Under the pieces are notes generated by a model that saw nothing but the letters and a program-made list of their open reading frames with translations, searched no databases and was not told where the DNA came from. Below are positions 1-26,538 of a stretch of 64,000 bases of DNA, piece after piece; the stretch's first letter is position 1, and the number at the start of each line of letters is the position of its first letter. Made by a program: the position numbers and the translations under genes. Source of the stretch: a virus; the IMG/VR virus record IMGVR_UViG_3300045988_165974, positions 64,001-128,000 of that record. The stretch is one strand, 5' to 3'.

Positions 1-45
1 GTCCGTGTAAAAGGTGATGGCAAATTATAAAGGGGGATAAAAAAG

Positions 46-213
46 ATGAAAAAAAGAATTATAGCAATTTCAGGATTATTAGTAATAGGAATGATGGTAT
101 TTCATAAGCCATTAAGCTTAAAAGCTATGGATATAGTAGACTATTATGGAGAAAAAACTGGTAAAAATGTTGTATCCGTGATAGACTTTTTAAATGAAGT
201 TTATTATCTATAA
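46..213 (+). CDS. small protein (55 aa) with hydrophobic signal/TM-like N-terminus
   Basis: Below the ORF-track cutoff. ATG follows an AGGGGGA RBS. Starts MKKRIIAISGLLVIGMMVF. Open frame ends at TAA 211-213. Confidence 0.45.
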   Translation: MKKRIIAISGLLVIGMMVFHKPLSLKAMDIVDYYGEKTGKNVVSVIDFLNEVYYL

Positions 214-323
214 ATGATGGGACTTTCAAAGTCCCTATATGGTAGTAATTGGTTCGCCTCCACGTGGCACTACTGGAAACAAGTTTACTTGGCTAAGAAC
301 CAAAAAAAGAAGGGATAAAAAAG

Positions 324-644
324 ATGATAAAAAAGATTGAAGAAAAAATTAAAGAATTAGGCTTCGTTGTAGGTTGTTACAATGATAAAATTGATGACAT
401 TTTAACTCCAGGAGCAACACGTAAAGTTTGTGGGTTACTAGAAGAAGAATACACAGACGAATTGATGCGAATTAGAGGTAAACTATATAAAGTCTGTATA
501 GCAACTGTTGACAATGAAAAAGATATCAATATATATCATGCATTAGACTATTACAGACAATACGGAGAAGAACATCTGGATAATGACTATGAAGAAAAAA
601 TGATGACTTTAAAGGAATATAAAGCTTTAAAAATGATGGTATAA
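324..644 (+). CDS. hypothetical small early protein
   Basis: ORF track; GAAGGGA RBS upstream. Confidence 0.6.
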   Translation: MIKKIEEKIKELGFVVGCYNDKIDDILTPGATRKVCGLLEEEYTDELMRIRGKLYKVCIATVDNEKDINIYHALDYYRQYGEEHLDNDYEEKMMTLKEYKALKMMV

Positions 645-721
645 GGCAAAAAATTCGAAACCGTGGGTTTTCCACGGTCTACAAATGATAGGCTAATTGT
701 ACTGACGAGATAGCCTTTGTC
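645..721 (+). ncRNA. type II hammerhead ribozyme HH1
   Basis: Open stem II ggcaaa/tttgtc. Core C-GAAA-C. Stem III cgtggg-tttt-ccacg. GUC cleavage triplet ends at 679. Stem I tacaa/ttgta. Core CUGACGA-G. Loop I aggcta is complementary to tagcct in stem II (pseudoknot). Confidence 0.85.
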
Positions 722-754
722 TTTTGTAAAAATGATGATGAAAAGGGGATAAGA

Positions 755-1042
755 ATGATGAGAGAACATGCAATATATAAAGATTATATCAGATATATAG
801 GAGATGGATTTAATTTTTCAGAATTATATTCATATGAAGACGGTAAAGAATTACATTTCAATAAATTTATGGATTATTGGGAAGACTCTAAAACTGGTAG
901 ATTTTATCGTTGGAAAAATTCAAAAGATAATAAAATTATAAAAGAATGTCATGAAGAAACGCTTGATTATTTTGGATTTAAATCTAGTCGACTAAATGAT
1001 GATAAAGAATCTTTAGAAGATGAAGAATATCTACCATTCTAA
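755..1042 (+). CDS. hypothetical small early protein
   Basis: ORF track; GGGGA RBS; the start could also be the second ATG at 758. Confidence 0.6.
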   Translation: MMREHAIYKDYIRYIGDGFNFSELYSYEDGKELHFNKFMDYWEDSKTGRFYRWKNSKDNKIIKECHEETLDYFGFKSSRLNDDKESLEDEEYLPF

Positions 1043-1046
1043 TGAA

Positions 1047-1124
1047 GGTAATAAATTCGAAACAAGGGATTTTCCCTTGTCTGTAAATGATAGGCTCTTT
1101 ATACTGACGAGATAGCCTATTACC
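1047..1124 (+). ncRNA. type II hammerhead ribozyme HH2
   Basis: Open stem II ggtaat/attacc. C-GAAA-C. Stem III aaggga-tttt-cccttg. GUC ends at 1081. Stem I tgtaa/ttata (one G-U pair). CUGACGA-G. Pseudoknot aggct/agcct. Confidence 0.85.
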
Positions 1125-1153
1125 TTTACAATAGAAATGAAGGGGGATTAAAG

Positions 1154-1408
1154 ATGATGAAAAATTTAGAGTGTGTATATGATAGCAGAAAATCATTTTA
1201 TGGAAAGGCAAAAGTTGAAACTAATTCAAATGAAGGTATAATTACTTTATATAGCTACGGAACAAAAGTAGCTTGTATAAAAGATGGTAAACCAGAACTT
1301 TTATGGAATGGATATTCCCAAACAACTTACAGACATATAGCCGAATTCTTTAAACAAAATGGTTTTATGGAATATAGTTCAAAAGCAGTAATTCAAACTT
1401 TATTGTAA
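1154..1408 (+). CDS. hypothetical protein (84 aa)
   Basis: ORF track; GGGGGA RBS. Confidence 0.6.
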   Translation: MMKNLECVYDSRKSFYGKAKVETNSNEGIITLYSYGTKVACIKDGKPELLWNGYSQTTYRHIAEFFKQNGFMEYSSKAVIQTLL

Positions 1409-1416
1409 TTTTTTAA

Positions 1417-1445
1417 TTGACATTTTTACACAAAAATGATACTAT
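1417..1445 (+). promoter_or_regulatory. sigma-A type promoter
   Basis: TTGACA, 17-nt spacer, TACTAT. Belongs to the repeated promoter family. Confidence 0.6.
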
Positions 1446-1551
1446 TAAATCAAGAGGAGTAATCCCCTGGTTCTTAATGCAGTAGCTAATAGCTAGAGGT
1501 CGCAACTCCTCATAAAACATATGCAGAGCGAGAAAATGAAAGGGGATAAAG

Positions 1552-1998
1552 ATGATGAAAATAAAAGAATTATATGAAAACATTAGTAACTGTTTAGATT
1601 GGATTAAAATCAATAATAGTGATTTAAAAGACATATTTGAAGGTGCTAAGGCATTAAGAAGAGGAATTCAAGTCCTAGAATATGACAAAGAAATGATAGG
1701 CAAAATTGATGATAACTATTTTATTTCAAATTTTATTATGGATATTTTAGAAAAAAATCTTCCAGAGTACCAATTAAGTTTAGACATGATTGATGACATT
1801 TTAGAAGAACTAGATATAGATGATGATACTTTAGAAGAATTAGATGAAAGCGAATTTGAAAATCATGTTATAATCAAAAATACTTTCGTAGATGTAAAAG
1901 AGTCAATTTCTTTTGATGATTACTGGGATGGATTAGACTTTGATAGTCTTTTAAAAAGATTTGAGTTTGCAAAAGAGGAAATTGGTTACTTATTATAA
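1552..1998 (+). CDS. strongly acidic hypothetical protein
   Basis: ORF track; GGGGA RBS; D/E-rich throughout (runs such as LEELDIDDDTLEELDESE). Confidence 0.6.
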   Translation: MMKIKELYENISNCLDWIKINNSDLKDIFEGAKALRRGIQVLEYDKEMIGKIDDNYFISNFIMDILEKNLPEYQLSLDMIDDILEELDIDDDTLEELDESEFENHVIIKNTFVDVKESISFDDYWDGLDFDSLLKRFEFAKEEIGYLL

Positions 1999-2088
1999 GT
2001 TTAAATTCGAAACAGGGAATACAGGAAATCCTGTATTGCTTGTCTATAAGTAACAGGCTGCTTGTACTGATGATGATAGCCTAAGCTT
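1997..2088 (+). ncRNA. type II hammerhead ribozyme HH3 (variant core)
   Basis: Open stem II aagttt/aagctt. C-GAAA-C. Long stem III agggaatacagg-aaat-cctgtattgcttg. GUC ends at 2044. Stem I tataa/ttgta. The core is CUGAUGA followed by an extra U before GAUAGCC. Pseudoknot aggct/agcct. Confidence 0.7.
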
Positions 2089-2115
2089 ATAAATATAACG
2101 ATAAAAGGGGATAAA

Positions 2116-2373
2116 ATGATGAACAATTTAAAATGGCAAAAACTTATAAGTAATTTGGATACAGAAGAAGGTAGACAAGAGTTTATAAAAATTGCTTCTT
2201 CTGGAATGTATTCAGGTGAAAATATTGATGGTGAAAAAGTCATAACCATTGTTTCTCAGGGAGTGGGAATGATAGTAAAAACTAAACATCACGAAAAGCC
2301 AAACTGGTGGGAATGTGTTGATTATGACGAACTTGGCTGCATGGAGTGTGTAACATACGAAAGAGCCGAATAA
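2116..2373 (+). CDS. hypothetical protein (85 aa)
   Basis: ORF track; GGGGA RBS. Confidence 0.6.
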   Translation: MMNNLKWQKLISNLDTEEGRQEFIKIASSGMYSGENIDGEKVITIVSQGVGMIVKTKHHEKPNWWECVDYDELGCMECVTYERAE

Positions 2374-2376
2374 ATT

Positions 2377-2468
2377 GAAGGATAAATTCGAAACAAGTGA
2401 TACGGGTTTTCTGTATTACTTGTCTATAAGGTTAAGCTACTTATACTGACGAGATAGCTTAATCCTTC
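2377..2468 (+). ncRNA. type II hammerhead ribozyme HH4
   Basis: Open stem II gaaggat/atccttc. C-GAAA-C. Stem III aagtgatacgg-gttt-tctgtattacttg. GUC ends at 2424. Stem I tataa/ttata. CUGACGA-G. The pseudoknot covaries (aagcta/tagctt, versus aggcta/tagcct in HH1). Confidence 0.85.
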
Positions 2469-2491
2469 TAAAATGAAAGGGGATAAAAAAG

Positions 2492-3019
2492 ATGATGAAA
2501 AAAGAAAACATTGAAAGATTTTTAAAGTTATTAAATTCAGAAGAAATAAGCGATAAAATAAAAGATATGTATCTTGACTTACTAGAGAGTCATATAGATG
2601 ATGACCTTGGAGTCAAAATAGAAATCATATTAAGCCTAGATGGAGAAGTAGATAACAGATTTTTTACAGGTAATTCAACTAGAATGGACGTATATGAAGG
2701 CAACTCAATTGTTGTGGCAGCCATCAGACATGATGTAAATATTACTGATGAAATGATGGGAGAAATAGTCGATGTATTAAGTAATGATGTATATGAAGAA
2801 TTTGTTCAATATCTTTATGGATTAGACGATATTCCAGAAGAAGAGCAAGAAGAATATCTTGAAGAAAATCTTACTTGGGATAATTTCTATGACTTTGATT
2901 CTATAATATATGGAGAAATTCAGAGAGAAGCTTGGGAAAACAATGTTGACTACTATGGAAATGAAGAAATTGACCAAAAGCTTTATGAATGTATTCAACA
3001 ATTAGAAAATCTTTTATAG
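2492..3019 (+). CDS. strongly acidic hypothetical protein
   Basis: ORF track; GGGGA RBS; D/E-rich with no recognisable catalytic motif. Confidence 0.6.
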   Translation: MMKKENIERFLKLLNSEEISDKIKDMYLDLLESHIDDDLGVKIEIILSLDGEVDNRFFTGNSTRMDVYEGNSIVVAAIRHDVNITDEMMGEIVDVLSNDVYEEFVQYLYGLDDIPEEEQEEYLEENLTWDNFYDFDSIIYGEIQREAWENNVDYYGNEEIDQKLYECIQQLENLL

Positions 3020-3038
3020 GAGCAGCAATGCTCCACTC

Positions 3039-3098
3039 TAAACTCACTTGGCACATGTCAAAAGGTCCAAAGTCCTTGAAAAGAGTGATGGGAGTAAA
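3039..3098 (+). ncRNA. conserved three-way-junction RNA element, copy A (class unknown)
   Basis: UAA, then P1 ACUC/GAGU, P2 UUGGC-ACAU-GUCAA, and P3 AAGG/CCUU with loop UCCAAAGU. 3' tail GAUGGGAGUAAA. Same architecture as copy B, with compensatory changes in all three helices. Confidence 0.6.
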
Positions 3099-3156
3099 GG
3101 CGAAGTTACCAAAATGCTCGTCTAAATATAATGGTAACAATAAAAAGGGGGTAAAT

Positions 3157-3471
3157 ATGAAGGTATATTTAGGAAATGCATTTAGTTTGCAAATGATAAG
3201 TACAACAAAGGATACAGACATAAGAGTTTCACCAGTTGATGTTCAAACTGTAAAAGATAGTGATTTTATATCAATTGTAGGTCATCAAGATACTGCATCT
3301 GTAGTTGGAAACATCTTAGGAAAAGATGTACCTTGCAATCGAGTTTCTGTTAGTTTGAGTAAAGGAGATATTTTATATGTAGCACAAATTGTTGGTGGCA
3401 GACTTCCTGTGGGAGCTACTTGTTTACCAAACGGCTTTAAATTAACATTCTTGAAAGTAACTATCTTGTAA
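3157..3471 (+). CDS. DUF1874-like (STIV B116-like) protein
   Basis: Internal ATG with a GGGGG RBS, chosen over the track start at 2989, which would read through the RNA element. Pattern GH-x2-TA...LG...NR...GD...RLP matches my recollection of the DUF1874 family. Confidence 0.6.
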   Translation: MKVYLGNAFSLQMISTTKDTDIRVSPVDVQTVKDSDFISIVGHQDTASVVGNILGKDVPCNRVSVSLSKGDILYVAQIVGGRLPVGATCLPNGFKLTFLKVTIL

Positions 3472-3537
3472 ATAATATGAGGTTTGGGAGTCCTTTTAAA
3501 ACTCCCCCTAAATATGAAAATGAAGGGAGAAATAAAA

Positions 3538-3675
3538 ATGGAAGAAAAAAGAGAAATGACAATAGAAGAAGAATTTGAAAAACATATGAAGACTATGGAA
3601 GGACATGTATGCTACGGTTGTAGTGGTTGTAAATTTGCTTTCTATGGAGTTTGTCCATATGCTTTAGAGGGGTAA
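3538..3675 (+). CDS. small Cys-rich protein (CYGCSGC...C)
   Basis: ATG with a GAAGGGAG RBS, in frame within track ORF 3484..3675. Confidence 0.5.
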   Translation: MEEKREMTIEEEFEKHMKTMEGHVCYGCSGCKFAFYGVCPYALEG

Positions 3676-3689
3676 AACCTCTCTTGCTT

Positions 3690-3747
3690 TAAACTAGCCA
3701 CCAGAAGGTGAGAGTCCAAAGCCTCTGTGAATAGTGATGGGAGTAAA
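3690..3747 (+). ncRNA. conserved three-way-junction RNA element, copy B
   Basis: UAA, then P1 ACUA/UAGU, P2 CACC-AGAA-GGUG, and P3 AGAG/CUCU with loop UCCAAAGC. 3' tail GAUGGGAGUAAA. Junction lengths are identical to copy A. Confidence 0.6.
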
Positions 3748-3766
3748 TAAAAGGGGGTAAACGATA

Positions 3767-3967
3767 ATGATGAAGAATGAAAATAATTTTGAAAGGATAA
3801 TATGTGATAGCTTATGGGACATAAAACAGAATTATCCAAATATTGAATTGTCTAAACATCTATTCTATATAGACACCTTTGAAAGATTAGGATATGGCAA
3901 AAAAGGAATAGAAATAACTTTAAATAACAATGATAAGTATATTATTACTAAAGTTGAAAATGATTAA
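3767..3967 (+). CDS. hypothetical protein (66 aa)
   Basis: ORF track; GGGGG RBS. Confidence 0.55.
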   Translation: MMKNENNFERIICDSLWDIKQNYPNIELSKHLFYIDTFERLGYGKKGIEITLNNNDKYIITKVEND

Positions 3968-3968
3968 T

Positions 3969-4063
3969 ATAGTCTAAATTCGAAACAGAGGAAAGAATGA
4001 AGGTTCTTTTCTTTGTCTATAATAAGATAGGCTCTTTATACTGATGATGATAGCCTAGACTAT
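3969..4063 (+). ncRNA. type II hammerhead ribozyme HH5 (variant core)
   Basis: Open stem II atagtct/agactat. C-GAAA-C. Stem III agaggaaagaa-tgaagg-ttcttttctttg. GUC ends at 4017. Stem I tataa/ttata. CUGAUGA plus an extra U, as in HH3. Pseudoknot aggct/agcct. Confidence 0.7.
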
Positions 4064-4205
4064 TATAAAAGGTTAGATAAAATGCTATCAAGAACTCATG
4101 AAAGTGAGTGTTGAATATATTATCATTTTTTGGGAGAGGGTTGCCCTCTCCTATCCCCAATATAGTAGATAAATGATAGTGATATCATTAAATATATATT
4201 ATGTA

Positions 4206-4235
4206 ATCTCTCCAATTGAGAGGTTATTTTTTTTT
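4206..4235 (+). terminator. rho-independent terminator ending the ribozyme-containing operon
   Basis: Stem atctctc/gagaggt with loop caatt, followed by a T9 run. Confidence 0.7.
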
Positions 4236-4256
4236 ACTTAAATTTATAAAAAGTAC

Positions 4257-4285
4257 TTGCAAGTCTTACACAAAAATGCTACAAT
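4257..4285 (+). promoter_or_regulatory. sigma-A type promoter
   Basis: TTGCAA, 17-nt spacer, TACAAT. The spacer resembles that of the promoter at 1417. Confidence 0.55.
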
Positions 4286-4307
4286 TAAATCAAAGGTGGT
4301 GAAGAAT

Positions 4308-4631
4308 ATGAAATACAATTCAATGGAAATACATGACAGAACTTGGAACTTATTTAATCCAAATAAAAAATATAAATGGAGTGACATTTACAAAAATGAA
4401 GAAGAAATGATAGCAGATTTACATTATGTTGAATCAGATGCTTATGAAAAGGTACTTAATCCATCTGCTCCAATTTATGTTGGTTATCAATATATTCACT
4501 CTTTTGCAAAACAAGTAAAAGAAGGTAAAGAATTAAGTAAAAAACAAATAACTCAATGTAAAAGATTAGCAAAAGAAATTAAAAAGGCTAGAGTATTTGG
4601 AGAATATATAAGAGAAATAAAAGAACAATAA
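4308..4631 (+). CDS. hypothetical protein
   Basis: ATG with a GGTGGTGA RBS, in frame within track ORF 4257..4631. Confidence 0.6.
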   Translation: MKYNSMEIHDRTWNLFNPNKKYKWSDIYKNEEEMIADLHYVESDAYEKVLNPSAPIYVGYQYIHSFAKQVKEGKELSKKQITQCKRLAKEIKKARVFGEYIREIKEQ

Positions 4632-4667
4632 CAGAGCCCTCATTAGGGGGTTCTTAGGAGGTATAAT

Positions 4668-4958
4668 ATGAACAATATTTCTTTAGTGCAGCTTAGAAAA
4701 GATTATGATTATCTAAATAGCAAAATTTCTTATCATGTGTTAAATGAAGACGAATTATTAAATGAAGTTGTTCCTAAAATGTTGAGTGGGAAAATGGATT
4801 TAAAAAACTTTATTCTGTGGGCAATAAAAGATACGATAAAATATGTAGTAGAAGACAGAGAGGCAATGAACACAAAAGAAGACATTGAATTTATTGAATC
4901 AGATAAAAGATTTAAAAGGATTCTTGACAGATACGATATTGATATAGAGGAGGTTTAA
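4668..4958 (+). CDS. hypothetical protein, paralog of the next gene
   Basis: ORF track; GGAGG RBS. Shares the L-W-I-D-I...V...F...D-R-KRI pattern with 4960..5280. Confidence 0.6.
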   Translation: MNNISLVQLRKDYDYLNSKISYHVLNEDELLNEVVPKMLSGKMDLKNFILWAIKDTIKYVVEDREAMNTKEDIEFIESDKRFKRILDRYDIDIEEV

Positions 4959-4959
4959 T

Positions 4960-5280
4960 ATGAATATAGAGCAACAATTAAAAGGATTAGAAATAAAACA
5001 ATCTACAACTACTCTAAGAGCAGATTTTGAATATTTAGATGATAATATCAATTGGTATCTAATTGATGAAGCAATATTAGTAACAGAAATTGCTCCAGGA
5101 TTGCAATATGGAACATTAAATCTAAAACAATTTTTGCTTTGGAGCATCTGGGACATTATTGCTTTTGTTATTATAGAAAATCATGACGAAGATGATGTTA
5201 ATTTTGTTAAAACAGACAGTAGGGTTAAAAGAATCATAAGAAAATATGGTTTAAAAGAAAGCATAGAAGAATTAATATAG
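4960..5280 (+). CDS. hypothetical protein, paralog of the previous gene
   Basis: ORF track; GGAGG RBS; tandem paralog. Confidence 0.6.
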   Translation: MNIEQQLKGLEIKQSTTTLRADFEYLDDNINWYLIDEAILVTEIAPGLQYGTLNLKQFLLWSIWDIIAFVIIENHDEDDVNFVKTDSRVKRIIRKYGLKESIEELI

Positions 5281-5291
5281 GAGGAGTAGAT

Positions 5292-5579
5292 ATGAAATAT
5301 AGAATATGGTGGATACCGCAAGTAGGATATGAAGGTACTTTTTATGTACCTGTAAATTCTCCAGAAGAAGGATTAAAAATGATGTCAGTTTTAGGAGCAT
5401 ATGATTTATTTCAATTAAAGAATAATATTAAACCAGACTTTTCAAATACAGGTGGCTTAGAAGTCTTTGAAAACGGAGAATGGGTAGATTACTATGACGA
5501 AGACGGCAGAGATATAGATGAACATTTTGAAGAAGATGTGGATATGCAAGACTTTATAGAAAAAGTTTATAATTTTTAA
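5292..5579 (+). CDS. hypothetical protein
   Basis: ORF track; GGAGGAG RBS. Confidence 0.6.
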   Translation: MKYRIWWIPQVGYEGTFYVPVNSPEEGLKMMSVLGAYDLFQLKNNIKPDFSNTGGLEVFENGEWVDYYDEDGRDIDEHFEEDVDMQDFIEKVYNF

Positions 5580-5613
5580 AAGGAATAATTACAAAAGGGG
5601 TGGGGGTAAGACT

Positions 5614-6453
5614 ATGAAACAATTAGAGGATTTAACAGGAATGAAGTTTGGACTATTAACTGTAATAGAACTCGACCATAGAGAAAATGGTCACTCATAT
5701 TATAAATGCAAATGTGAGTGTGGCAATGAATGTATTATATATTCATATAGCCTTAAAAATGGGAATACAAGAAGTTGTGGCTGTTTAAGAAAAAAGGAAT
5801 CAGAAGATTTAACTGGTAAAAAATTTGGTATGCTTACAGCTATAGAAAAGGTTAAATCTAATGATGATAGTCATAAAAGCTATTGGAAGTGGCAATGTGA
5901 GTGTGGTAATCAAAAAATTATAAGAGCTGACTCAGTTAAAAGTGGTTACGTAAAGAGCTGTGGTTGTTTAAATAAAAAAAATCAACTTGATATTCCAGAA
6001 GGTAGTAGATACGGGAAACTTACAGTTATTAAAAAAGTAGGACAAAATAAACAAAATTATATTATGTATAAATGCAAATGTGATTGTGGTAATACAGTAA
6101 TTGTTAAAGGTTCTAGTTTATGTAGGGGAGCAACTCAATCTTGTGGATGTATAGCTACAGAACGTATTAAAAAGATGCAGCCTATTGCAAAAGACGTCGG
6201 AAGATATGCTGGAACTAAAATTGGTATTATTAGTAATAATAAACTGAATAGGAACAACACTAGCGGAACAAAAGGTGTTTACTACATTAAACAACGTGAT
6301 AAATGGAGAGCCGCTATAGGGTTTAGGGGTAAAACTATACATTTAGGAGAGTTTAAAAACAAAGAAGATGCTATTGAAGCTAGAAAAAAAGCAGAATTAA
6401 AATATTTCAAGCCAATAATAGAAGAATATAACGAGATTAAAGGAAATAATTAA
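5614..6453 (+). CDS. AP2-domain DNA-binding protein with three N-terminal Cys4 repeats
   Basis: Three repeats of LTG-KFG-LT-I...C-CECGN...SCGCL. The C-terminal SGTKGVYY..RDKWRAAIGFRGKTIHLGEF...EDAIEARKKAE is AP2-like. Confidence 0.75.
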   Translation: MKQLEDLTGMKFGLLTVIELDHRENGHSYYKCKCECGNECIIYSYSLKNGNTRSCGCLRKKESEDLTGKKFGMLTAIEKVKSNDDSHKSYWKWQCECGNQKIIRADSVKSGYVKSCGCLNKKNQLDIPEGSRYGKLTVIKKVGQNKQNYIMYKCKCDCGNTVIVKGSSLCRGATQSCGCIATERIKKMQPIAKDVGRYAGTKIGIISNNKLNRNNTSGTKGVYYIKQRDKWRAAIGFRGKTIHLGEFKNKEDAIEARKKAELKYFKPIIEEYNEIKGNN

Positions 6454-6487
6454 TATTCCAAAATAAAAAATAAAATATATAAGGGAT

Positions 6488-6520
6488 AGAGCAGCTTAAT
6501 TGCTGCTTTATTTTTTTTTA
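6488..6520 (+). terminator. rho-independent terminator
   Basis: Stem agagcagc/gctgcttt followed by a T-run. Confidence 0.7.
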
Positions 6521-6539
6521 TAAAAATTCCATATAATAG

Positions 6540-6568
6540 TTGACATACTTACATAAAAGTATTAATAT
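6540..6568 (+). promoter_or_regulatory. sigma-A type promoter
   Basis: TTGACA, 17-nt spacer, TAATAT. Confidence 0.6.
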
Positions 6569-6622
6569 ATAAATATAGTTAGTTTTACACAAAAACAAAA
6601 TTTCTAAAAGGGGGATGGAGAT

Positions 6623-7357
6623 ATGTTTACACTAGGCAACAGTAAAATTAAAACGGCACTAAGAAATATATCACAAAGGAAGTATGATTGTGATGTGTTT
6701 AAAATGGAAGTAAATAGTATATCAGAAATATGTAAAAAAGAATTTCAAGCAGAATATAGTAAGATGGAAAAATTCTCTTTCAACAAAGGATATCTTGAAT
6801 TTACATTTAAAGACCAAGCAGTAATTGGCTATTTTGAAATACAAGGATTTAATATAAGTTTAATTATTGCTCCCACAAATAATGTTTATGGCAGTAGTTT
6901 TATCTTTAATGCAAATATAAAAGATATGCAAGGAGAAGTTGGATATGTAAAGAATTCTTTATTAATATTAGTGGAAGAAGATGAATCTTTGCATAAGAAA
7001 ATTAGTGCAATTGGAAAGACATTATGCGAAGGAATCTTAGTTGCAAATTATTTAGCTCAAACAAATCCAACAATAATAAAAGACAATGAAACTAGGATTG
7101 TTAAAAAGTCAAATAAAAAGAGAAAACATAAAAATAAAACTATCAGGAAAATAAACCTTACTAATATAAGACATGTAAAAGAATACAGTAATACTAATAT
7201 AAATACAGATAAAAGAAATTACGAAAGACATACTGAATCTTGGACTGTAAGAGGGCATTACAGACATTATAAAAGTGGTAAGGTAGTTTGGATAGAACCA
7301 TCTACTAGAGGGACTGGAAAACCTCAAGGAAAAGTTTACAATATAAATGTTGAATAA
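6623..7357 (+). CDS. hypothetical protein with basic C-terminal region
   Basis: ORF track; GGGGGA RBS. Confidence 0.55.
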   Translation: MFTLGNSKIKTALRNISQRKYDCDVFKMEVNSISEICKKEFQAEYSKMEKFSFNKGYLEFTFKDQAVIGYFEIQGFNISLIIAPTNNVYGSSFIFNANIKDMQGEVGYVKNSLLILVEEDESLHKKISAIGKTLCEGILVANYLAQTNPTIIKDNETRIVKKSNKKRKHKNKTIRKINLTNIRHVKEYSNTNINTDKRNYERHTESWTVRGHYRHYKSGKVVWIEPSTRGTGKPQGKVYNINVE

Positions 7358-7370
7358 GGGGGACTAAAAC

Positions 7371-7745
7371 ATGGTAGAAGTAAATAAATTATACAGATGC
7401 AGACAAGATATAGTTTTAAATCCAAGTACAGTTGATAAAATCAATATATCATTAGACTTAGATATGGGAAATACAGTTATGGCAACTATTGATGATGTTG
7501 GGATATATAAACCTATAACAATTTCAGAATTTAATTTAGCAAAAGAAATACTTAAGAAAAAAGCAGAGCAGCTAATTATAGAGAATAAAGAAGTGGACCA
7601 TGTAATATACTCTATAGTAGAAACTGACTATGAAGGTTATTGTAATCGAATAATTATATGTCTTATTCCTCTTACTCATGAAGAATATGTTAGAAGAATG
7701 AGACTTTTAAACGACACAACAAAGTGTTTTGTATTAAATAGATAA
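7371..7745 (+). CDS. hypothetical protein
   Basis: ORF track; GGGGGA RBS. Confidence 0.55.
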   Translation: MVEVNKLYRCRQDIVLNPSTVDKINISLDLDMGNTVMATIDDVGIYKPITISEFNLAKEILKKKAEQLIIENKEVDHVIYSIVETDYEGYCNRIIICLIPLTHEEYVRRMRLLNDTTKCFVLNR

Positions 7746-7759
7746 TAGGAGGGTTTTAT

Positions 7760-8707
7760 ATGAGTAATTGTTATAAAGAGTTTTTAGGATATATGAAAGA
7801 TGTGCAAGGAGTTGATAATAAAACTCTAGTATGTTACGAAAAAAATTTAAAAGACTTTAACGAGTATATTTTTGGTGGGAAAGCAGATACTACTTTTGAA
7901 GAAATAGCAAACTTAAAAGTATCTGAAATACAAACAAAATGGCTCAATAGACTTAAAGATGAAAAAGGATATAAATCAAATACCTTAAACAACCGCATAA
8001 TTACACTTACAAGACTTTACACATATATGGTAGGAGAAAACTATACTACTGTAAATAAAGGCAAACTAATACCTCATTACAAAGGCGACAAGAAAGTTAA
8101 AAAAGAAATATCAACTGATGATTATATATCTTTATTAGAAGAACTTAGAAAAAATAGAGATAAAAACTTCACTAGTCTTAGAAATTGGTTTATGGTAGAA
8201 TTCTTTTTAGCAACTGGACTTCGTAGAGCGGAAATCATAGCATTAGACATCGAAGATGTAAATATTCTTACTGGTGAAATAAAAGTCACTAGAAAATATG
8301 ACGAAGGTGTTAAATTTGGTAAAGAAAGAATAGAGTATCTTCCAGAAATACTTTTAGATGATTTACACTATTATCTTTCACATAGATTAGACATAGAAAC
8401 AGATAGTGATGCTTTCTTTATTTCTACTCATAAAAAAAGAATGTGCGCATCTAATATCAATAAGCTGCTTAATAAGATAGCAGATAATAACGGCATGAAA
8501 ATACACCCTCATATGCTTAGAGCGGGATTTTCAAGCAATACCATTAATAGTGGTAGGGTAGAATCATATGAAGTCGCAGAAGCGATGGGACACAGTAATA
8601 AGACTACTACTTTGAACTATTATCATAAGTCTAATACAGAAGTATTAAAGAAAGTTGCCAACAGTAATATGATATTTGACAAAAGACAAGATGATAATGT
8701 AATATAA
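7760..8707 (+). CDS. tyrosine recombinase/integrase (XerC/D-like)
   Basis: ATGLRRAE (Arg box), HPHMLRAGF (HxxR) and GHSNKTTTLNYYH (Tyr box). Confidence 0.85.
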   Translation: MSNCYKEFLGYMKDVQGVDNKTLVCYEKNLKDFNEYIFGGKADTTFEEIANLKVSEIQTKWLNRLKDEKGYKSNTLNNRIITLTRLYTYMVGENYTTVNKGKLIPHYKGDKKVKKEISTDDYISLLEELRKNRDKNFTSLRNWFMVEFFLATGLRRAEIIALDIEDVNILTGEIKVTRKYDEGVKFGKERIEYLPEILLDDLHYYLSHRLDIETDSDAFFISTHKKRMCASNINKLLNKIADNNGMKIHPHMLRAGFSSNTINSGRVESYEVAEAMGHSNKTTTLNYYHKSNTEVLKKVANSNMIFDKRQDDNVI

Positions 8708-8740
8708 AAATAGTATAAATAAAATATAGAGGTGATTAAT

Positions 8741-9430
8741 ATGATGAAAAACAAAAACTCAATTGGGTTCTATATAGAAAGTTTAGGATTCGATTTAGAT
8801 AAAGTTTGGGATTTTGAAAAGAATACAAAAAATCCTGATGAAGTTACAAAAATGTCAAATGTTGAAATATGGTTAAAATGTGTTAATCATGATTATCACG
8901 GCAGCTATAAAACAACTGCTAAGGCTTACTATTATTCCTCTTCTACAGAGGGATATGGTTGCCCTTACTGTTCTAAAATAAGTCCAAATAGAAAGGTCCA
9001 TATACTTGATAGTTTTGCATATAAACATCAAGATTGGGCAAAATGGTGGGATAGTTCTAATAAGAAAACTCCTTTTGAATGCAAAGGAAATGAACAACAT
9101 GAGACATTTAAATTTACTTGTCCTGTTTGTGGCTACAGTTTTGAAAGTACATTAATGTTCCTTTCTGATTTAAAATTTAAACATGTATGTGAATCAGATA
9201 AAACAAGAGGTAAGGGGTATGATGAATATCAAGATTACAGAAAACAACAACAGTTTGAAAGAGCAGCAAAGCACATAAAGAAATCTGGTAAAGGAGAATG
9301 GGAACTTATAGAATTCAATGGAACAAACAGACCTGGTACTGTTAAGCATCATTGTGGAGCAACTAAGACAGTTACTAGAATATCTTCTTTATATAATAAA
9401 AATATAGTTTGTCCTAATTGTGATAAATAG
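8741..9430 (+). CDS. multi zinc-ribbon protein (treble-clef type)
   Basis: ATG with a GAGGTGA RBS (the track start at 8732 is GTG). GCPYCS, CPVCGY and CPNCDK motifs. Confidence 0.6.
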   Translation: MMKNKNSIGFYIESLGFDLDKVWDFEKNTKNPDEVTKMSNVEIWLKCVNHDYHGSYKTTAKAYYYSSSTEGYGCPYCSKISPNRKVHILDSFAYKHQDWAKWWDSSNKKTPFECKGNEQHETFKFTCPVCGYSFESTLMFLSDLKFKHVCESDKTRGKGYDEYQDYRKQQQFERAAKHIKKSGKGEWELIEFNGTNRPGTVKHHCGATKTVTRISSLYNKNIVCPNCDK

Positions 9431-9459
9431 TTGACATACTTATAAAAAAATAGTAAGAT
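9431..9459 (+). promoter_or_regulatory. sigma-A type promoter
   Basis: TTGACA, 17-nt spacer, TAAGAT. Confidence 0.55.
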
Positions 9460-9620
9460 AAAAAAAAGAGGTAGATGTCGAACCCATCTACCTTAAACAA
9501 TATTGATATAATCAATCTTTAGAATTGTTTTTAGAGTTAATCTTTTTAAATTGTATTTTTATAATACCATAAAAGGATTGATTATGTCAAGAAGTACTGC
9601 TATTTTTTAAGGAGAATTTT

Positions 9621-10577
9621 ATGAAAAAAAAGGAAGAGAAATTAGAACACTTAAGAGAATACGGCATAGTCAATTTAAATGACGGCAGATTAGTATTTTC
9701 GGCTTGTCATGATGTATCAAAAGAAGAAAATCTTACGATAATTAACGATTTAAACAAAGAAGACAAAGAAAAGAGAAACAAAATATTAGAATTCAAAAGA
9801 TTTAATAGAAAGTTAGGAGGATTTTATTTTATGGTTTACAGTAATAACAAAGCTTTATTTTCTGAAATTCCAGAAGTTAAAAATGAGGACTTACCTAAAT
9901 TGCTTTATTTAGCCTCATACATGGATTATGAGAATAGACATGGTAATAAGGTATGTAAGGTAATAGGAGGAAATAAAAAAGTCCCTATGCCTAAGAGAGA
10001 AGTTTTTAAGCTAATAAGATTTGCAGATTCAACAAAGGCAAAAAATTGGTTTTTAAAAATGGAGAAATTAGGACTATTATATATTTATGATGATTCAGTA
10101 GAACTAAATGAAAAATATTTTATTAAAGGCTGTACTGGAACAGAATATAAATATAGTCGAGTTTATATTAACACGATAAGGGGATTATATACTAATTGTG
10201 ATTTAAGAAAACATAGACAAATTGGCTTAATATTAAGACTATTGCCTTATATGAATATAAATTCAAATATACTTTGTAGCACTAGTGAAGATGAAATTCA
10301 CAAACTAGATAGATATGAAATTGCAGAAATACTTGATGTAAAAGACGATAAGAGAAATTTATCTAAAATGATAAGAACTCTTTTAAATCTTAAAGTTGAT
10401 TTTGAAAATTATAAATTGCAGGTATTTAAATTAGTAAAAGTATATGACACCAATTTTGTTGAAGAATATTTTGTAGTCAATCCAATTTTAGCATATAAAG
10501 GAGATGACTATTATAAGATGCAAGAAATCCTAAAAACATATTTCTTTGATGAAGATGATATTAAAGTAATAAGATAA
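9621..10577 (+). CDS. Rep-like/replisome-organiser-like protein (paralog family copy 1)
   Basis: Paralogous to 18510..19445 (LGGF...LLYLASYMDY versus LIYLATYIDY; NP-x-L/I-x-xKG-D near the C-terminus). Iterons lie immediately downstream. The function is inferred. Confidence 0.5.
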   Translation: MKKKEEKLEHLREYGIVNLNDGRLVFSACHDVSKEENLTIINDLNKEDKEKRNKILEFKRFNRKLGGFYFMVYSNNKALFSEIPEVKNEDLPKLLYLASYMDYENRHGNKVCKVIGGNKKVPMPKREVFKLIRFADSTKAKNWFLKMEKLGLLYIYDDSVELNEKYFIKGCTGTEYKYSRVYINTIRGLYTNCDLRKHRQIGLILRLLPYMNINSNILCSTSEDEIHKLDRYEIAEILDVKDDKRNLSKMIRTLLNLKVDFENYKLQVFKLVKVYDTNFVEEYFVVNPILAYKGDDYYKMQEILKTYFFDEDDIKVIR

Positions 10578-10583
10578 ATAGAT

Positions 10584-10612
10584 TCGCTCTGATTAATTTC
10601 AGGGCGATTTTT
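10584..10612 (+). terminator. rho-independent terminator
   Basis: Stem tcgctctga/tcagggcga followed by a T-rich tract. Confidence 0.6.
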
Positions 10613-10615
10613 AAT

Positions 10616-11032
10616 ATTTTTGAACATTGGTGTATTTGAGGACGATTTTAAAAAATAAAAAACCACTCAAATGCCGATAAGAGTGGTTTAAACTAAAAAA
10701 CTTTTCATCTTAAGGAACTATCACTCTACGACCAAATAGATTACAGTTCTCTTATTTTTATTATATCATGTATAGAAAAATTTTGCAAGAATTTATTTTT
10801 TAAACAACTTCATGTTTTTGAACATCGGTGTATTTGAGGCAGACTTTTTATATAAAATCCATGTTTTTAAACATTAGTGTATTTGAGGACGATTTTAGAA
10901 AAAAACACATTAAAAACATTGATATTTCAACGATTGCATAGCAATAGGATTTGATTAGGTTAAATTTAATGGTCTACTTTGAGGCAGAAAAAAACAACGA
11001 TTTTGACACTTTGAGGCAGATTTTTAAAATGG
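10616..11032. repeat. iteron cluster (candidate replication origin)
   Basis: Three 28-nt direct repeats, GAACATyGGTGTATTTGAGGmmGAyTTT, at 10622-10649, 10820-10847 and 10869-10896. Two half-sites TTTGAGGCAGA at 10978-10988 and 11010-11020. The spacers are AT-rich. Confidence 0.65.
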
Positions 11033-11310
11033 CAGAGAATGTTGATATTTCAACAATAACTCCAATTTTAGGTAGTTGCATCATTATTATTATTCTCTCT
11101 ATATAGCTAACGCCAAATTCTTTTCCGATAAACGAGAAATATTCTTTAAATTTTCCCAAGTGATTAATTAGTTTTCGTGATATAAAAACACATGGAAAAT
11201 TCTGTTCAGATTTATTTTTATCTTCCCTCACTTCATAACAAATAGATAAGATAGAAACAACTAGATGTTCAGTCCAGCTAAAAAAACATCTGAACTTTTA
11301 CAAATTATTC

Positions 11311-11339
11311 TTGACATTTTTATATTAAAATACTATAAT
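11311..11339 (+). promoter_or_regulatory. sigma-A type promoter
   Basis: TTGACA, 17-nt spacer, TATAAT. Confidence 0.65.
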
Positions 11340-11451
11340 CTACTTATAAACAGTAAAGGAGAGATTCAATCATGAAAAATAACTCTTCATTTTATAGGAA
11401 ATAAGGGTTTTATACTTGTTGTATAATTCCCAAATAAAAAGGAGAAGGAAA

Positions 11452-12369
11452 ATGAAAGAAATCAATATTTATAACGAAAAAAAAGTAGAAGAAGTTATGT
11501 CAACATGGAAACCAACTGCAAGAAATTCTGCTAAAGGTGGTTATAAAAAATTACTTTTTTACTTAAAAAGAGAAGGTTCTTTAAAAGTAAAAGGGAAAAA
11601 CTATTATACAACAAAAGACATGTTAGACAGATATTTAGAAGAGACAACAAATAAGAGTTCGTATCAGGCTATGAGTATTATTAAAACTTATATGAACAAA
11701 CTGTTTAGAGAGTTGGAAATTGATTATCAATTCGAAGCAATATCTAGTAAGCAATACATTAGAAATACAGACTTTTACAACAAAGAAGAAGTAAAACAAA
11801 TAGCTCTATTAACTAGAAATGCACAGGATAGATTTATAATCTACGGACTGTTTAGCGGTCTAAAAGGCAGCAAGTTTTGTGAGTTATTAGATTTAAAAAC
11901 GAAAGACATAGATTTTAAGCACAATCTAATTAAAATAAACAATAGAAAAATAGAAATGGATGAATTCATGACTATGATAGCTAAAGATACAGTTAATCAA
12001 GAAATTTATTATAAGAAAGGGGAGAAAGAAAACACTAGTAAGTCATCTATGTTTTATGAACTTAATATGCATAGTGAATATGTTTTAAAACCAAAGCCAT
12101 ACGCTAAAAACAATAAAGGTTTAAAGCCATTTAGTTTATGTGGATTTAAAACAAAGCTAGAAAAAATAAGTGCAGATTTAGAGGGTTCTAGTTTTTATCC
12201 AGTTTTAGCAGACAAACTGTATAAGTCAGGAATCTTATATCAAATGAAAAAAATAGAAGAAGAAACAGGTATAGTATGGAAAAATAAAAATCTTGATGAC
12301 TGGAAAAAAACAGAAGGCTTAATTTTTGGTACTTCTGAAATTCTAAATATCTATAGACAAATGAATTAA
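11452..12369 (+). CDS. hypothetical protein, possibly a degenerate integrase fold
   Basis: ATG with a GGAGAAGGA RBS, in frame within track ORF 11416..12369. RFIIYGLFSGLKGSKFCELLDLKTKDID resembles the Arg-box region of tyrosine recombinases. No HxxR or Tyr box was seen. Confidence 0.5.
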   Translation: MKEINIYNEKKVEEVMSTWKPTARNSAKGGYKKLLFYLKREGSLKVKGKNYYTTKDMLDRYLEETTNKSSYQAMSIIKTYMNKLFRELEIDYQFEAISSKQYIRNTDFYNKEEVKQIALLTRNAQDRFIIYGLFSGLKGSKFCELLDLKTKDIDFKHNLIKINNRKIEMDEFMTMIAKDTVNQEIYYKKGEKENTSKSSMFYELNMHSEYVLKPKPYAKNNKGLKPFSLCGFKTKLEKISADLEGSSFYPVLADKLYKSGILYQMKKIEEETGIVWKNKNLDDWKKTEGLIFGTSEILNIYRQMN

Positions 12370-13733: not shown

Positions 13734-14903
13734 TTGCTAAAGAGTTACAAAACGGAAATAAACCCAACACAGGAACAAATACAAAAGATAAATAAAACAA
13801 TTGGAACTTGTAGATTTATTTATAATTTTTACATCGCTCATAATAAAGAACTCTATAACAAGGGCGAAAAATTTATGACGGCAAAATCATTCAGTGTTTG
13901 GTTAAATAATGAATTTCTACCAAATAATCCGAATTATTCATGGATAAAAGAAGTAAGTTCTAAATCAGTTAAAAAATCTATGGAAAATGCTTATACTGCT
14001 TTTAATAAGTTTTTTAAGAAACAAAGTAAGTTTCCTAGATTTAAGAAAAAGAATAAATCTGATGTAAAAATGTACTTTGTAAAAAATAATCCAAAAGATT
14101 GTTTCTGTGAAAGACATAGAATTAATATTCCTACTCTTGGATGGATTAAATTAAAAGAAAAGGGATATATTCCTACTACTAAAGACGGATATGTAATTAA
14201 AAGTGGTACGGTTTCTTGCAAAGCTGGAAGATATTATGTATCAGTTTTAATTGATACTTCTGATACAGAAAAACCACAATTAAATGACTTTGGATTAGGA
14301 ATTGATTTAGGTGTTAAAGAATTTGCGGTAATTAGTAATGGAACTATAAAGAAAAATATAAATAAAACTGCTAAATTAAAAAAAATAGAAAAACAATTAA
14401 AAAGAGAACAGCGTTGCCTATCGAGAAAATACGAAGGATTAAAGAAACGCAACAATAAAATGAAAGGAGAAGCCACTAGGCAAAATATTAAAAAACAAGT
14501 CTTAAAGGTACAGAAACTTCATCAAAGAATGGATAATATTCGTACTGATTATATCAATAAATGTGTAAATGAGATAGTGAAAACCAAGCCATCTTATATT
14601 ACCATTGAAGATTTGAATGTAAAAGGAATGATGAAGAATAAACATCTCTCTAAGGCAGTTGCTTCACAGAAATTCTATGAATTTAGAACTAAACTTGAAA
14701 CAAAATGCAAAGAATTAGGAATTGAATTAAGAATTGTAAATAGGTGGTATCCATCGAGTAAATTGTGTCATGAATGTGGTTGTATCAATAAAGATTTAAA
14801 ACTTTCTGACAGAGAATATATTTGTGGATGTGGATACCATGCTGATAGAGATTATAATGCAAGTCTTAATTTGAGAGATGCAATATCCTACAAAATAGCA
14901 TAA
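13734..14903 (+). CDS. tnpB: TnpB (RuvC-like RNA-guided nuclease family)
   Basis: RuvC triad contexts GIDLGVKEF, ITIEDLNVKGM and HADRDYNASLNL. Zn finger CHECGC...CGCG. AGGAGG RBS with a TTG start. Confidence 0.85.
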   Translation: MLKSYKTEINPTQEQIQKINKTIGTCRFIYNFYIAHNKELYNKGEKFMTAKSFSVWLNNEFLPNNPNYSWIKEVSSKSVKKSMENAYTAFNKFFKKQSKFPRFKKKNKSDVKMYFVKNNPKDCFCERHRINIPTLGWIKLKEKGYIPTTKDGYVIKSGTVSCKAGRYYVSVLIDTSDTEKPQLNDFGLGIDLGVKEFAVISNGTIKKNINKTAKLKKIEKQLKREQRCLSRKYEGLKKRNNKMKGEATRQNIKKQVLKVQKLHQRMDNIRTDYINKCVNEIVKTKPSYITIEDLNVKGMMKNKHLSKAVASQKFYEFRTKLETKCKELGIELRIVNRWYPSSKLCHECGCINKDLKLSDREYICGCGYHADRDYNASLNLRDAISYKIA

Positions 14904-14904
14904 A

Positions 14905-15094
14905 CAAGCATTTGTAGGTATGTACCGATGGCTTTAGTCGGGAATTTACGACTGTGGACTGTACAAGAACTTGTGAGTAGTGTATTACTTTGTAATCACA
15001 AAAGCATACAGGATGAAACAGTAAGAAAAGTTTGTGAAAACTTTCAATATCTCGATATGGGTATATTTGTCCATATTTTGAGTGGCAGGAAGAC
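14905..15094 (+). ncRNA. putative omega-RNA (reRNA) scaffold of the solo TnpB
   Basis: Lies directly 3' of tnpB. About 100 nt (ATGTACCGATGGC...CACAAAAGCAT) are highly similar to the orphan copy at 35185. The 5' boundary probably lies inside tnpB, so both ends are approximate. Confidence 0.5.
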
Positions 15095-25911: not shown

Positions 25912-26538
25912 ATGAAATATTACTCAATAGGAGAATTTGCGAACCAAATAGGCAAGACGGTTCAAACACTTAGAAATTGGGATAATAAAGGAACTTTAAA
26001 ACCGCATCATGTAACAGTAGGCGGAACAAGGTATTATTCTCAAGAACAACTTAATCATTTCTTAGGACTTAAAAATATGGAATCTAAAAATAAAAAAATT
26101 ATTGGTTATTGCAGAGTTAGTTCTTATAAACAAAAAGACGACCTTGAAAGGCAAATTGAAAATGTAAAAACATATATGTATGCAAAAGGTTATCAATTCG
26201 AGATTATTTCTGATATTGGAAGTGGAATAAACTATAATAAAAAAGGATTAAATCAATTAATAGATATGATTACTAATTCAGAAATAGATAAGATAGTAGT
26301 CCTTCATAAAGATAGATTAATTAGATTTGGATATGAATTAATAAAAAATCTTTGTGATAAGTATGGGACTACTATTGAAATTATAGATAATACCGAGAGG
26401 ACAGAAGAACAAGAATTAGTTGAAGATTTAATTCAGATAATCACTGTATTTAGCTGTAGACTTCAAGGTAAAAGAGCTAATAAAGCTAAGAAAATGATTA
26501 AGGAGTTGATAGAAGATGATACTTGCAAAGAAAGTTAG
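25912..26538 (+). CDS. tnpA: IS607-type TnpA (MerR-like HTH plus serine recombinase)
   Basis: HTH YSIGEFANQIGKTVQTLRNWDNKG. Catalytic region IIGYCRVSSYKQKDDLERQ. Confidence 0.85.
   Translation: MKYYSIGEFANQIGKTVQTLRNWDNKGTLKPHHVTVGGTRYYSQEQLNHFLGLKNMESKNKKIIGYCRVSSYKQKDDLERQIENVKTYMYAKGYQFEIISDIGSGINYNKKGLNQLIDMITNSEIDKIVVLHKDRLIRFGYELIKNLCDKYGTTIEIIDNTERTEEQELVEDLIQIITVFSCRLQGKRANKAKKMIKELIEDDTCKES

Follow-up and report, generated by a model that had tools for sequence, protein, structure and literature searches.

Type II hammerhead ribozymes with a covarying clamp in a small-gene array of a gut phage

Do five similar intergenic regions in a run of small phage genes encode self-cleaving RNAs, and what would such RNAs do to the transcript that carries them? 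The regions are located in a viral DNA stretch of 64,000 nucleotides (positions 64,001 to 128,000 of the IMG/VR record IMGVR_UViG_3300045988_165974), which was analysed at its full length and is referred to as the window. The first 4.2 kb of the window contain approximately ten small open reading frames (ORFs) on the plus strand, each equipped with a strong ribosome-binding site (RBS) of the AGGGGG type. An earlier sequence-only reading proposed that the five regions, here called HH1 to HH5, are type II hammerhead ribozymes that divide a polycistronic message into single-gene pieces. The best explanation of the evidence presented here, to which a probability of about 0.85 is assigned, is that the five elements are genuine pseudoknot-stabilised type II hammerheads, encoded by the plus strand and contained in the mRNA of the run of small genes; the cutting of the transcript would follow from this assignment.

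Results

The five loci share one hammerhead architecture, as was found by a descriptor scan and by parsing the elements nucleotide by nucleotide (Table 1). The sequence AAATTCGAAAC occurs in exactly five copies, at positions 651, 1053, 2003, 2384, and 3976, all of them on the plus strand. Each copy opens a unit composed, in this order, of C11.1-G12-A13-A14, a hairpin closed by the pair A15.1-U16.1, C17, a second hairpin, CUGAYGA, GA, and UAGCCU. The type II descriptor requires C11.1-GAAA, then a hairpin (stem III) with A15.1-U16.1 as its closing pair, a nucleotide other than G at position 17, a stem I hairpin, and CUGANGA(N?)G. Applied to both strands of the 64 kb, it matches exactly these five loci and one nested alternative parse of HH4, and it has no match in 200 first-order Markov randomisations. 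Chance does not account for the observation, which is real.

The catalytic core is intact in all five elements, in agreement with the sequence-only reading, and the parts follow each other in the type II order. Each element contains C3-U4-G5-A6-N7-G8-A9, G12-A13-A14, A15.1-U16.1, a non-G nucleotide at position 17, and G10.1-C11.1. Loops cap stems I and III, and stem II is where the RNA enters and exits; this topology is evident from the parse and from the alignments to covariance models. Scanning viral, genome, and metagenome contigs for the pattern identified a clade of related phage contigs with three to six such hammerheads each (IMG/VR 3300008482_000010 and contigs labelled L099, L125, L126, L132-134, L140-142, L147, L150, and L160-162). 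The core columns, including the catalytic nucleotides, are invariant across 30 distinct sequences from this clade. Position 17 is C in all 120 of the distinct type II hammerheads that were compared, and the cleavage sites predicted from the sequence alone coincide with the parsed C17 positions of the five elements (Table 1).

Scans against Rfam did not detect a hammerhead in the window at the gathering level or at E ≤ 0.1, or in segments 1-5000 and 635-1135 at E ≤ 10. However, HH1 searched alone (75 nucleotides) was aligned end to end by RF02276 with a score of 33.9 bits and an E-value of 5e-6, below the gathering score of 37. Therefore, the failure of the window-scale scans to report HH1 is a loss caused by the speed filters. 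It was also considered that the Rfam library might lack the type II hammerhead family; this was rejected, because RF02276 matches other viral loci as well as lone HH1. GC-rich type II hammerheads of the viral contigs L034, L009, L091, and L097 score above the threshold of the family model. A separate covariance model, R1, was built from ten viral type II hammerheads from outside the phage clade and was run with the filters off. Its five best matches in the window are the five elements, with scores of 37.3, 37.2, 35.5, 24.7, and 15.4 bits and E-values as low as 1.5e-7, and the next match has 10.3 bits. The covariance-model check that had been suggested with the sequence-only reading thus gave a divided answer: empty Rfam scans of the window on the one hand, and on the other a sub-gathering match of lone HH1 and a ranking by R1 that places all five elements first. 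The gathering threshold is a curation cut-off and not a biological criterion.

Table 1. Positions of the hammerheads, of the other ribozyme-like elements, and of putative transcription signals in the array
Feature	Position	Strand	Clamp strands	Stem III hairpin	Predicted cut after	Stem I hairpin	CUGANGA segment	Pseudoknot strand	Basis and remarks
HH1, type II hammerhead	643-723	+	643-650/716-723	660-678	C679	680-701	CUGACGA 702-708	711-716	descriptor, parse, R1 37.3 bits, RF02276 33.9 bits alone; linker and stem II 5' strand 651-656; GAA 657-659; stem II 3' strand 709-710
HH2, type II hammerhead	1043-1128	+	1043-1053/1118-1128	1062-1080	C1081	1082-1103	CUGACGA 1104-1110	1113-1118	descriptor, parse, R1 37.2 bits; between ORF 755-1042 and ORF 1154-1408
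HH3, type II hammerhead	1993-2092	+	1993-2003/2082-2092	2012-2043	C2044	2045-2066	CUGAUGA 2067-2073, inserted U 2074	2077-2082	descriptor, parse, R1 24.7 bits; 5' clamp strand includes TAA stop 1996-1998; stem III of 14 positions with one G-G mismatch
HH4, type II hammerhead	2377-2468	+	2377-2383/2462-2468	2393-2423	C2424	2425-2445	CUGACGA 2446-2452	2455-2460 (UAGCUU)	descriptor, parse, R1 35.5 bits; loop I partner AAGCUA
HH5, type II hammerhead	3969-4063	+	3969-3976/4056-4063	3985-4016	C4017	4018-4040	CUGAUGA 4041-4047, inserted U 4048	4051-4056	descriptor, parse, R1 only 15.4 bits; no Rfam match when searched alone
HDV-like (hepatitis delta virus-like) candidate, F. prausnitzii type	242-305	+							RF02682 37.7 bits against gathering 44, E 1.7e-4
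Twister-P1-like 1	1471-1534	+							RF03160 36.4 bits against gathering 67.2, E 2.3e-5
Twister-P1-like 2	3035-3095	+							RF03160 45.4 bits, E 6e-8; after ORF 2492-3019
Twister-P1-like 3	3686-3744	+							RF03160 44.8 bits, E 9e-8; after ORF 3538-3675
Promoter-like site	1417-1445	+							TTGACA, 17 nucleotides, TG-TACTAT (extended -10); consensus match only; within the array
Hairpin and U-run resembling an intrinsic terminator	4203-4236	+							only such plus-strand site downstream of the array

The helices of the elements are supported by covariation, which was counted on an alignment (A3) of 30 distinct elements from the clade. Paired cells amount to 92.9%, compared with 34-46% in controls in which the partners were slid by one to three columns. 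Changes on both sides are present in 17 of 28 pairs, and the observed values were not reached in any of 500 shuffles. Both-sided changes affect five of the seven counted pairs of stem III, three of five in stem I, and eight of nine in the clamp, a helix distal to stem II. The sequence-only reading had stated that every helix covaries and had assigned the strand pairs ggcaaa/tttgtc, ggtaat/attacc, aagttt/aagctt, gaaggat/atccttc, and atagtct/agactat to stem II. These pairs are present and extend to 7-11 base pairs, and they do covary; however, they form the clamp. The canonical stem II is an invariant helix of two base pairs (U-A and C-G), which does not vary and is hence uninformative on covariation. 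Stem III is a hairpin of 7-14 base pairs, the sequences of which are unrelated among the paralogues, as had been noticed, although the clade alignment demonstrates that their pairing is kept. Stem I is an AU-rich hairpin of five base pairs with a loop of 10-13 nucleotides. Its earlier description as tacaa/ttgta or tataa/ttata does not apply to HH2, in which it is UGUAA/UUAUA with one G-U pair.

The strand UAGCCU, which lies directly 3' of stem II, is complementary to the AGGCUA of loop I. The pseudoknot proposed from this complementarity is borne out by the parse, and so is the linked change to AAGCUA/UAGCUU in HH4, which recurs in relatives. The loop I of HH4 is TATAAGGTTAAGCTACTTATA, and its tail at 2455-2460 (TAGCTT) conforms to TAGC[CT]T. 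Pseudoknot pair 77-102 is G-C in 24 of the clade sequences and A-U in six. A complement of five to six base pairs linking loop I to the tail is found in each of the five elements. Among the 120 distinct type II hammerheads, which were taken from all of the retrieved loci, a complement of at least five base pairs is present in 77.5%, compared with 39.7% for mismatched partners, and the paired sequences are highly diverse. The earlier reading of the elements as type II hammerheads is supported, because their core, topology, covariation, and pseudoknot all match the description of the type given by Perreault et al. in 2011 (PMC3088659).

The clamp is a separate helix of 7-11 base pairs positioned outside the pseudoknot strand and connected to stem II by an invariant AAAU linker. 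The 83% of its cells that are paired in alignment A3 are an underestimate, because the clamps of the HH4 and L133 groups are shifted by one column there. Many of its pairs are G-U, which can pair only as plus-strand RNA, and therefore the clamp is an RNA helix of the plus strand. It is essentially limited to this clade; the flanks of other type II hammerheads pair no better than mismatched controls. The 5' strand of the clamp overlaps the stop codon of the upstream gene in HH1 (643-650 and 642-644, respectively) and also, as the sequence-only reading had recognised, in HH3 (1993-2003 and 1996-1998), and it begins 1-4 nucleotides past the stop in HH2, HH4, and HH5.

Two functions of the clamp were considered and rejected. 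It is not likely to retain the cleavage products, since the predicted net binding between them is only -3 to -5.4 kcal/mol. Terminal inverted repeats of a mobile element were rejected because the sequence differs in each copy and the helix uses G-U pairs. Given the weak predicted binding between the products, the clamp is read as a folding aid that acts in cis: most likely it would assist the folding of an AU-rich ribozyme within a long mRNA, and it probably would not hold the products together. The clamp, stem III, and the pseudoknot helix are all present in nested minimum free energy folds, which have z-scores from -3.1 to -5.8. These folds lack the weak stem I, which is incompatible with the pseudoknot in a nested model.

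HH3 and HH5 contain an extra U after CUGAUGA, as had been pointed out, which is located between A9 and G10.1. The inserted U is present in nine of 28 distinct clade elements, always together with U at position 7, in 16 of 92 elements from outside the clade, and in hammerheads of L034 that score above the Rfam threshold. Judged by this distribution, it is a common variant of the family. An extra nucleotide at the position adjacent to CUGAUGA is tolerated in a viroid hammerhead. HH5 combines the inserted U with a stem III hairpin of 32 nucleotides and a loop I of 13 nucleotides. Its orthologues L132b, L141a, and L147b have the same clamp and loop I and unrelated stem III sequences, which supports the assignment of HH5.

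All five elements lie on the coding strand, just past a stop codon, which for HH1 is that of ORF 324-644. The position described previously, with a stop codon on one side and the following RBS on the other, is valid for HH1 to HH4, which are located 23-33 nucleotides upstream of the next start codon. It is not valid for HH5, behind which there are a non-coding tail that is conserved and the terminator-like hairpin, but no convincing gene; the sole ATG after HH5 (4081) opens a frame of ten codons behind a weak AAAAGG match. The tail (4075-4168) is approximately 90 nucleotides long, contains two hairpins, and extends from HH5 up to the terminator-like site. In relatives, its place is behind the final hammerhead irrespective of the type of the latter. 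The filtered Rfam scans at window scale, which also missed HH1 and were not complemented by a search of the tail alone, gave no match to it. The tail could be a small RNA released by the cleavage of HH5. Downstream of it, at 4257-4285, is a second promoter-like site with an extended -10 element; it shares with the site at 1417-1445 the 13-nucleotide spacer TTACACAAAAATG, which recurs without a change at 4266-4278, and has similar flanks. Comparison of the small ORFs of the array with Pfam and PHROGs identified only an STIV_B116-like domain (3157-3471) and phrog_4264 (1154-1408).

The hammerheads are interspersed with other ribozyme-like elements. Whereas the sequence-only reading mentioned one second class of RNA, matches to Rfam models point to more than one: three twister-P1-like elements and one HDV-like element, all of which score below the respective thresholds (Table 1). 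The HDV-like candidate is located between ORF 46-213 and ORF 324-644, and it is also found in L126 and L162, with 38.6 bits. The first twister-P1-like element is located a short distance downstream of the promoter-like site at 1417-1445 and has orthologues in L125 and L140. The second is 91% identical to its counterparts in relatives, compared with 77% for its flanks. In the set of twister-P1-like elements (12 clade sequences), compensatory changes affect six of 13 predicted pairs, distributed over three helices. The total is nine ribozyme-like elements of three classes within 4.1 kb.

Among the gene junctions of the array, only segment 3472-3537 lacks a recognised ribozyme. It contains a hairpin (3486-3506) with a 5' strand, GGGAGU, that resembles the downstream RBS, GGGAGA, and the 3' strand of the hairpin could alternatively mask the RBS. 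Short GC-rich hairpins are positioned directly before the HDV-like and twister-like elements (219-235, 1455-1468, 3019-3034, and 3666-3682). Cleavage near the 5' end of the ribozyme would make them the 3' terminus of the upstream mRNA, where they may serve as a protective cap.

The ribozyme-punctuated region is rearranged among related phages. A megablast comparison of positions 1-12000 with a phage collection gave no match, and of the relatives retrieved by exact patterns from viral, genome, and metagenome contigs, none matches the window identically across 1-6500. In a comparison of positions 1-4200 of the window with L125, L126, L140, L162, L141, and L147, the region is 77-92% identical and rearranged, whereas the flanking segment 4663-6500 is 97-99% identical. 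The gene order o2-HH1-o3-HH2-o4 of the window corresponds to o2-HH-o4-HH-o3-HH in L126 and L162, to o4-HH-o3-HH in L125, in which no o2 was detected, and to o4-o3-HH in L140. Gene o10 is replaced in relatives, and the GAAGGCAA-type hammerhead, which is the first in the window, is the last in relatives. The ends of BLAST blocks are located at or inside ribozymes (644/648, 1041-1077, 2101-2132, 3766-3783, 3959-3970, and 4027). On the basis of these alignments, the arrangement fits a role of the ribozymes as conserved cassette boundaries. Because the spacers hold the ribozymes, breaks at ribozymes are indistinguishable from breaks between genes, apart from a few that fall inside the elements.

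The virus is a gut phage of approximately 140 kb, distantly related to phiCD211. Its DnaB-like helicase is 52% identical to that of phiCD211, a Clostridioides difficile phage of approximately 131 kb. A protein of 279 amino acids is encoded in identical form on ENA assembly contigs of 137-141 kb and one of 66 kb; the related locus L149 and the helicase comparison suggest that these assemblies are human gut metagenomes. Model R1 did not find a type II hammerhead in phiCD211, a cultured relative (NC_029048.2; L170-L172). The remainder of the window encodes the DnaB-like helicase, DNA polymerase III alpha, ribonucleotide reductase, integrases, TnpB, and a beta-CASP nuclease. The nuclease ORF (44633-46090) has Lactamase_B, Beta-Casp, and RMMBL domains, characteristic of RNA nucleases of the RNase J/CPSF type, and its product could act on the predicted ribozyme-made ends. 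DNA polymerase III alpha is seemingly split into ORF 39686-40945, with the PHP domain and the start of the NTPase domain, and ORF 42292-44214, with the finger and HHH domains. An ORF of 284 amino acids (40967-41821) lies between the two, suggestive of the insertion of a mobile element or an intron. The gathering threshold is exceeded by three RAGATH-18 RNAs (14951-15024, 27685-27758, and 35215-35288), and the two of them for which upstream ORFs were examined are located just downstream of the TnpB-like ORFs 13734-14903 and 26516-27631, which have OrfB_IS605 and Cas12f1-like TNB domains. This adjacency agrees with published IS607 TnpB guide RNAs (PMC11061315).

Discussion

By analogy with the hammerhead family, the elements would function as follows. 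The RNA would fold into a three-way junction in which loop I pairs with UAGCCU and the clade-specific clamp of 7-11 base pairs closes the whole domain. The 2'-OH of C17 would attack its own phosphate, and after the cut the upstream RNA would end in a 2',3'-cyclic phosphate, whereas the downstream RNA would begin with a 5'-OH. A long transcript would be converted into gene-length mRNAs. The upstream pieces would end in the stem III hairpin, and the downstream pieces would start with the hairpin of stem I, followed by a standard leader that precedes the RBS. Since the transcript would be cut into separate pieces, adjacent cassette genes would be uncoupled in their stability and translation. The elements probably chop the transcript into single-gene messages, an inference that has likewise been drawn in the literature.

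Several observations weigh against this explanation. The gathering score of 37 bits was not reached by any of the five elements in any Rfam run, where HH1 and HH5 were the elements searched alone, and HH5 has no Rfam match and only 15.4 bits with R1. The minimum free energy folds place the pseudoknot helix where the weak AU-rich stem I should be, and the stability of stem I is therefore marginal. HH3 and HH5 have the inserted U beside A9, and stem III of HH3 has a G-G mismatch. That the region is transcribed as a single RNA is an assumption, and the single operon of the sequence-only reading is not demonstrable, as the promoter-like site at 1417-1445 lies inside the array. The literature has yet to prove what biological role bacterial and phage hammerheads have (PMC6765202).

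Other explanations account for parts of the evidence. A reading of the elements as chance matches to the motif, or as simple hairpins or terminators between genes, is compatible with the hairpins formed by stem III in HH1 and HH2, which match a terminator-like pattern on the minus strand. However, the absence of descriptor matches from 200 shuffles, covariance-model E-values down to 1.5e-7, the location on the coding strand, the conserved core nucleotides outside the hairpins, and the extensive covariation effectively refute it. It is very unlikely that the elements act principally at the DNA level, as conserved linkers of approximately 80 nucleotides that provide homology for the shuffling of cassettes in a hyperplastic early region, with the ribozyme activity secondary or lost. 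The permuted gene order among related contigs, the replacement of o10, the relocated GAAGGCAA-type hammerhead, and the BLAST blocks that stop at or inside ribozymes next to a nearly identical flank (4663-6500) would all be expected from such linkers. By contrast, the catalytic nucleotides are invariant in 30 copies and the helices contain compensatory and G-U changes, which indicates selection at the level of RNA; stem III sequences that are unrelated and nevertheless pair are needless in a DNA linker; and in spacers filled by ribozymes a break at a ribozyme is, with few exceptions, the same as a break at a gene boundary.

Two further possibilities accept the ribozymes and change what they would do. 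Cleavage may be conditional, if a ribosome terminating at the upstream stop codon melted the clamp and so coupled cleavage to the translation of the upstream gene. The proximity of the 5' clamp strand to the stop codon in all five elements, including the overlap in HH1 and HH3, and the restriction of the clamp to this clade speak for such coupling. It is nevertheless unlikely, as a ribozyme that has just emerged from the polymerase can be folded and cleaved by the time a ribosome arrives and most type II hammerheads function without a clamp. Alternatively, the ends generated by flanking ribozymes may be rejoined, by a ribozyme or an RtcB-type ligase, into circular or spliced gene-length RNAs. 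Ribozyme ends are RtcB substrates, the annotation of phiCD211 includes a "tRNA splicing ligase" (RtcB-like) as well as an RNA 2'-phosphotransferase, and the clamp brings together both product ends of one ribozyme. However, homologues of RtcB or KptA were not found in the window, phiCD211 itself has no type II hammerhead according to R1, the predicted binding between products is weak, and Perreault et al. searched for spliced or circular products without finding any (PMC3088659). Rejoining is thus highly improbable, and self-cleaving hammerheads in the mRNA of the small genes are the preferred explanation.

A wider proposal combines the hammerheads with the other elements and is put forward tentatively, with considerable doubt about its joint parts. 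In the clade of gut phages that resemble phiCD211, ribozymes of three classes may form standard sockets around each small early gene and cut the genes out with fixed, hairpin-capped ends. The clamp may provide for the reliable folding of AU-rich hammerheads in any context, and the conserved cores may serve as homology for the swapping and reordering of cassettes between phages. If this were true, AT-rich phage hammerheads would be widely under-annotated, having been missed by the filters and the threshold of Rfam. Irrespective of the proposal, ribozyme counts in AT-rich phage genomes are probably too low, because standard Rfam scans miss these textbook hammerheads.

The closest known system is the type II hammerhead itself. 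Its stem II is short, often two base pairs, and its loop I pairs just 3' of stem II in a pseudoknot that is required for fast cleavage (PMC3088659). Clusters of type II hammerheads flank single prophage genes, polycistronic fragments of approximately 2 kb cleave in vitro, and the processing of phage transcripts to gene-length mRNAs has already been suggested (PMC3088659); the remark of the sequence-only reading that hammerhead clusters in prophages had been described is thus correct, the first description being that of 2011. In D. vulgaris, cleavage by type II hammerheads takes place in vivo (PMC8782182). The elements of the window resemble RF02276 hammerheads in the core, the order of the parts (GAAA, stem III, UH, stem I, CUGANGA), the stem II of two base pairs, the pseudoknot between loop I and the 3' tail, and the clustering around single genes in phage or prophage DNA. 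They differ from them in the AU-rich stem I of only five base pairs with its loop of 10-13 nucleotides and in scores below the gathering threshold (HH1 and HH5 in lone searches). The covarying clamp of 7-11 base pairs distinguishes them from the RF02276 model and from nearly all of the approximately 90 other type II hammerheads that were collected. Their density is not unusual, contrary to the sequence-only reading, which regarded five in 3.4 kb as dense: there are five in approximately 2 kb in L009, six in approximately 3.5 kb in L034, and five in approximately 2.6 kb in L091.

Mixed bacterial ribozyme neighbourhoods, on which the RAGATH search is based, are similar in that hammerhead, twister-like, and HDV-like ribozymes adjoin each other and phage genes (PMC6765202, PMC10085705). 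Pseudoknotted type II hammerheads, their prophage clusters, the idea of processing, and the co-occurrence with twister and other classes were therefore already known. The novelty is modest and consists of an AT-rich sub-family that has a covarying clamp and is missed by the Rfam scan, of a three-class array, and of evidence for a shuffling of the genes that lie between ribozymes. In contrast to the mixed neighbourhoods, the three classes alternate here at nearly every junction of one 4.1-kb array, with the twister-like and HDV-like members below threshold.

Engineered insulators of the RiboJ type place a self-cleaving ribozyme before the RBS, so that the mRNA has the same 5' leader regardless of the upstream sequence. 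RiboJ is synthetic and consists of a satellite-RNA hammerhead with an added hairpin, whereas the elements described here are natural and their insulating role is only inferred. Promoter-stem-loop cassettes (PeSL) of T4-type phages mediate the modular shuffling of genes. The repeats of the window are ribozymes and not promoters with stem-loops, and their role in recombination is hypothetical; however, like PeSL, they are short, conserved, and non-coding, border the small early genes of a hyperplastic region, and are found where rearrangements have their junctions. Almost all gene junctions of the 4-kb array hold ribozyme-like elements, nine in total and of three classes, and the locus is a compact natural test case. 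Many related metagenomic contigs carry the same ribozymes around permuted or replaced genes, which makes the roles of insulator and cassette boundary testable.

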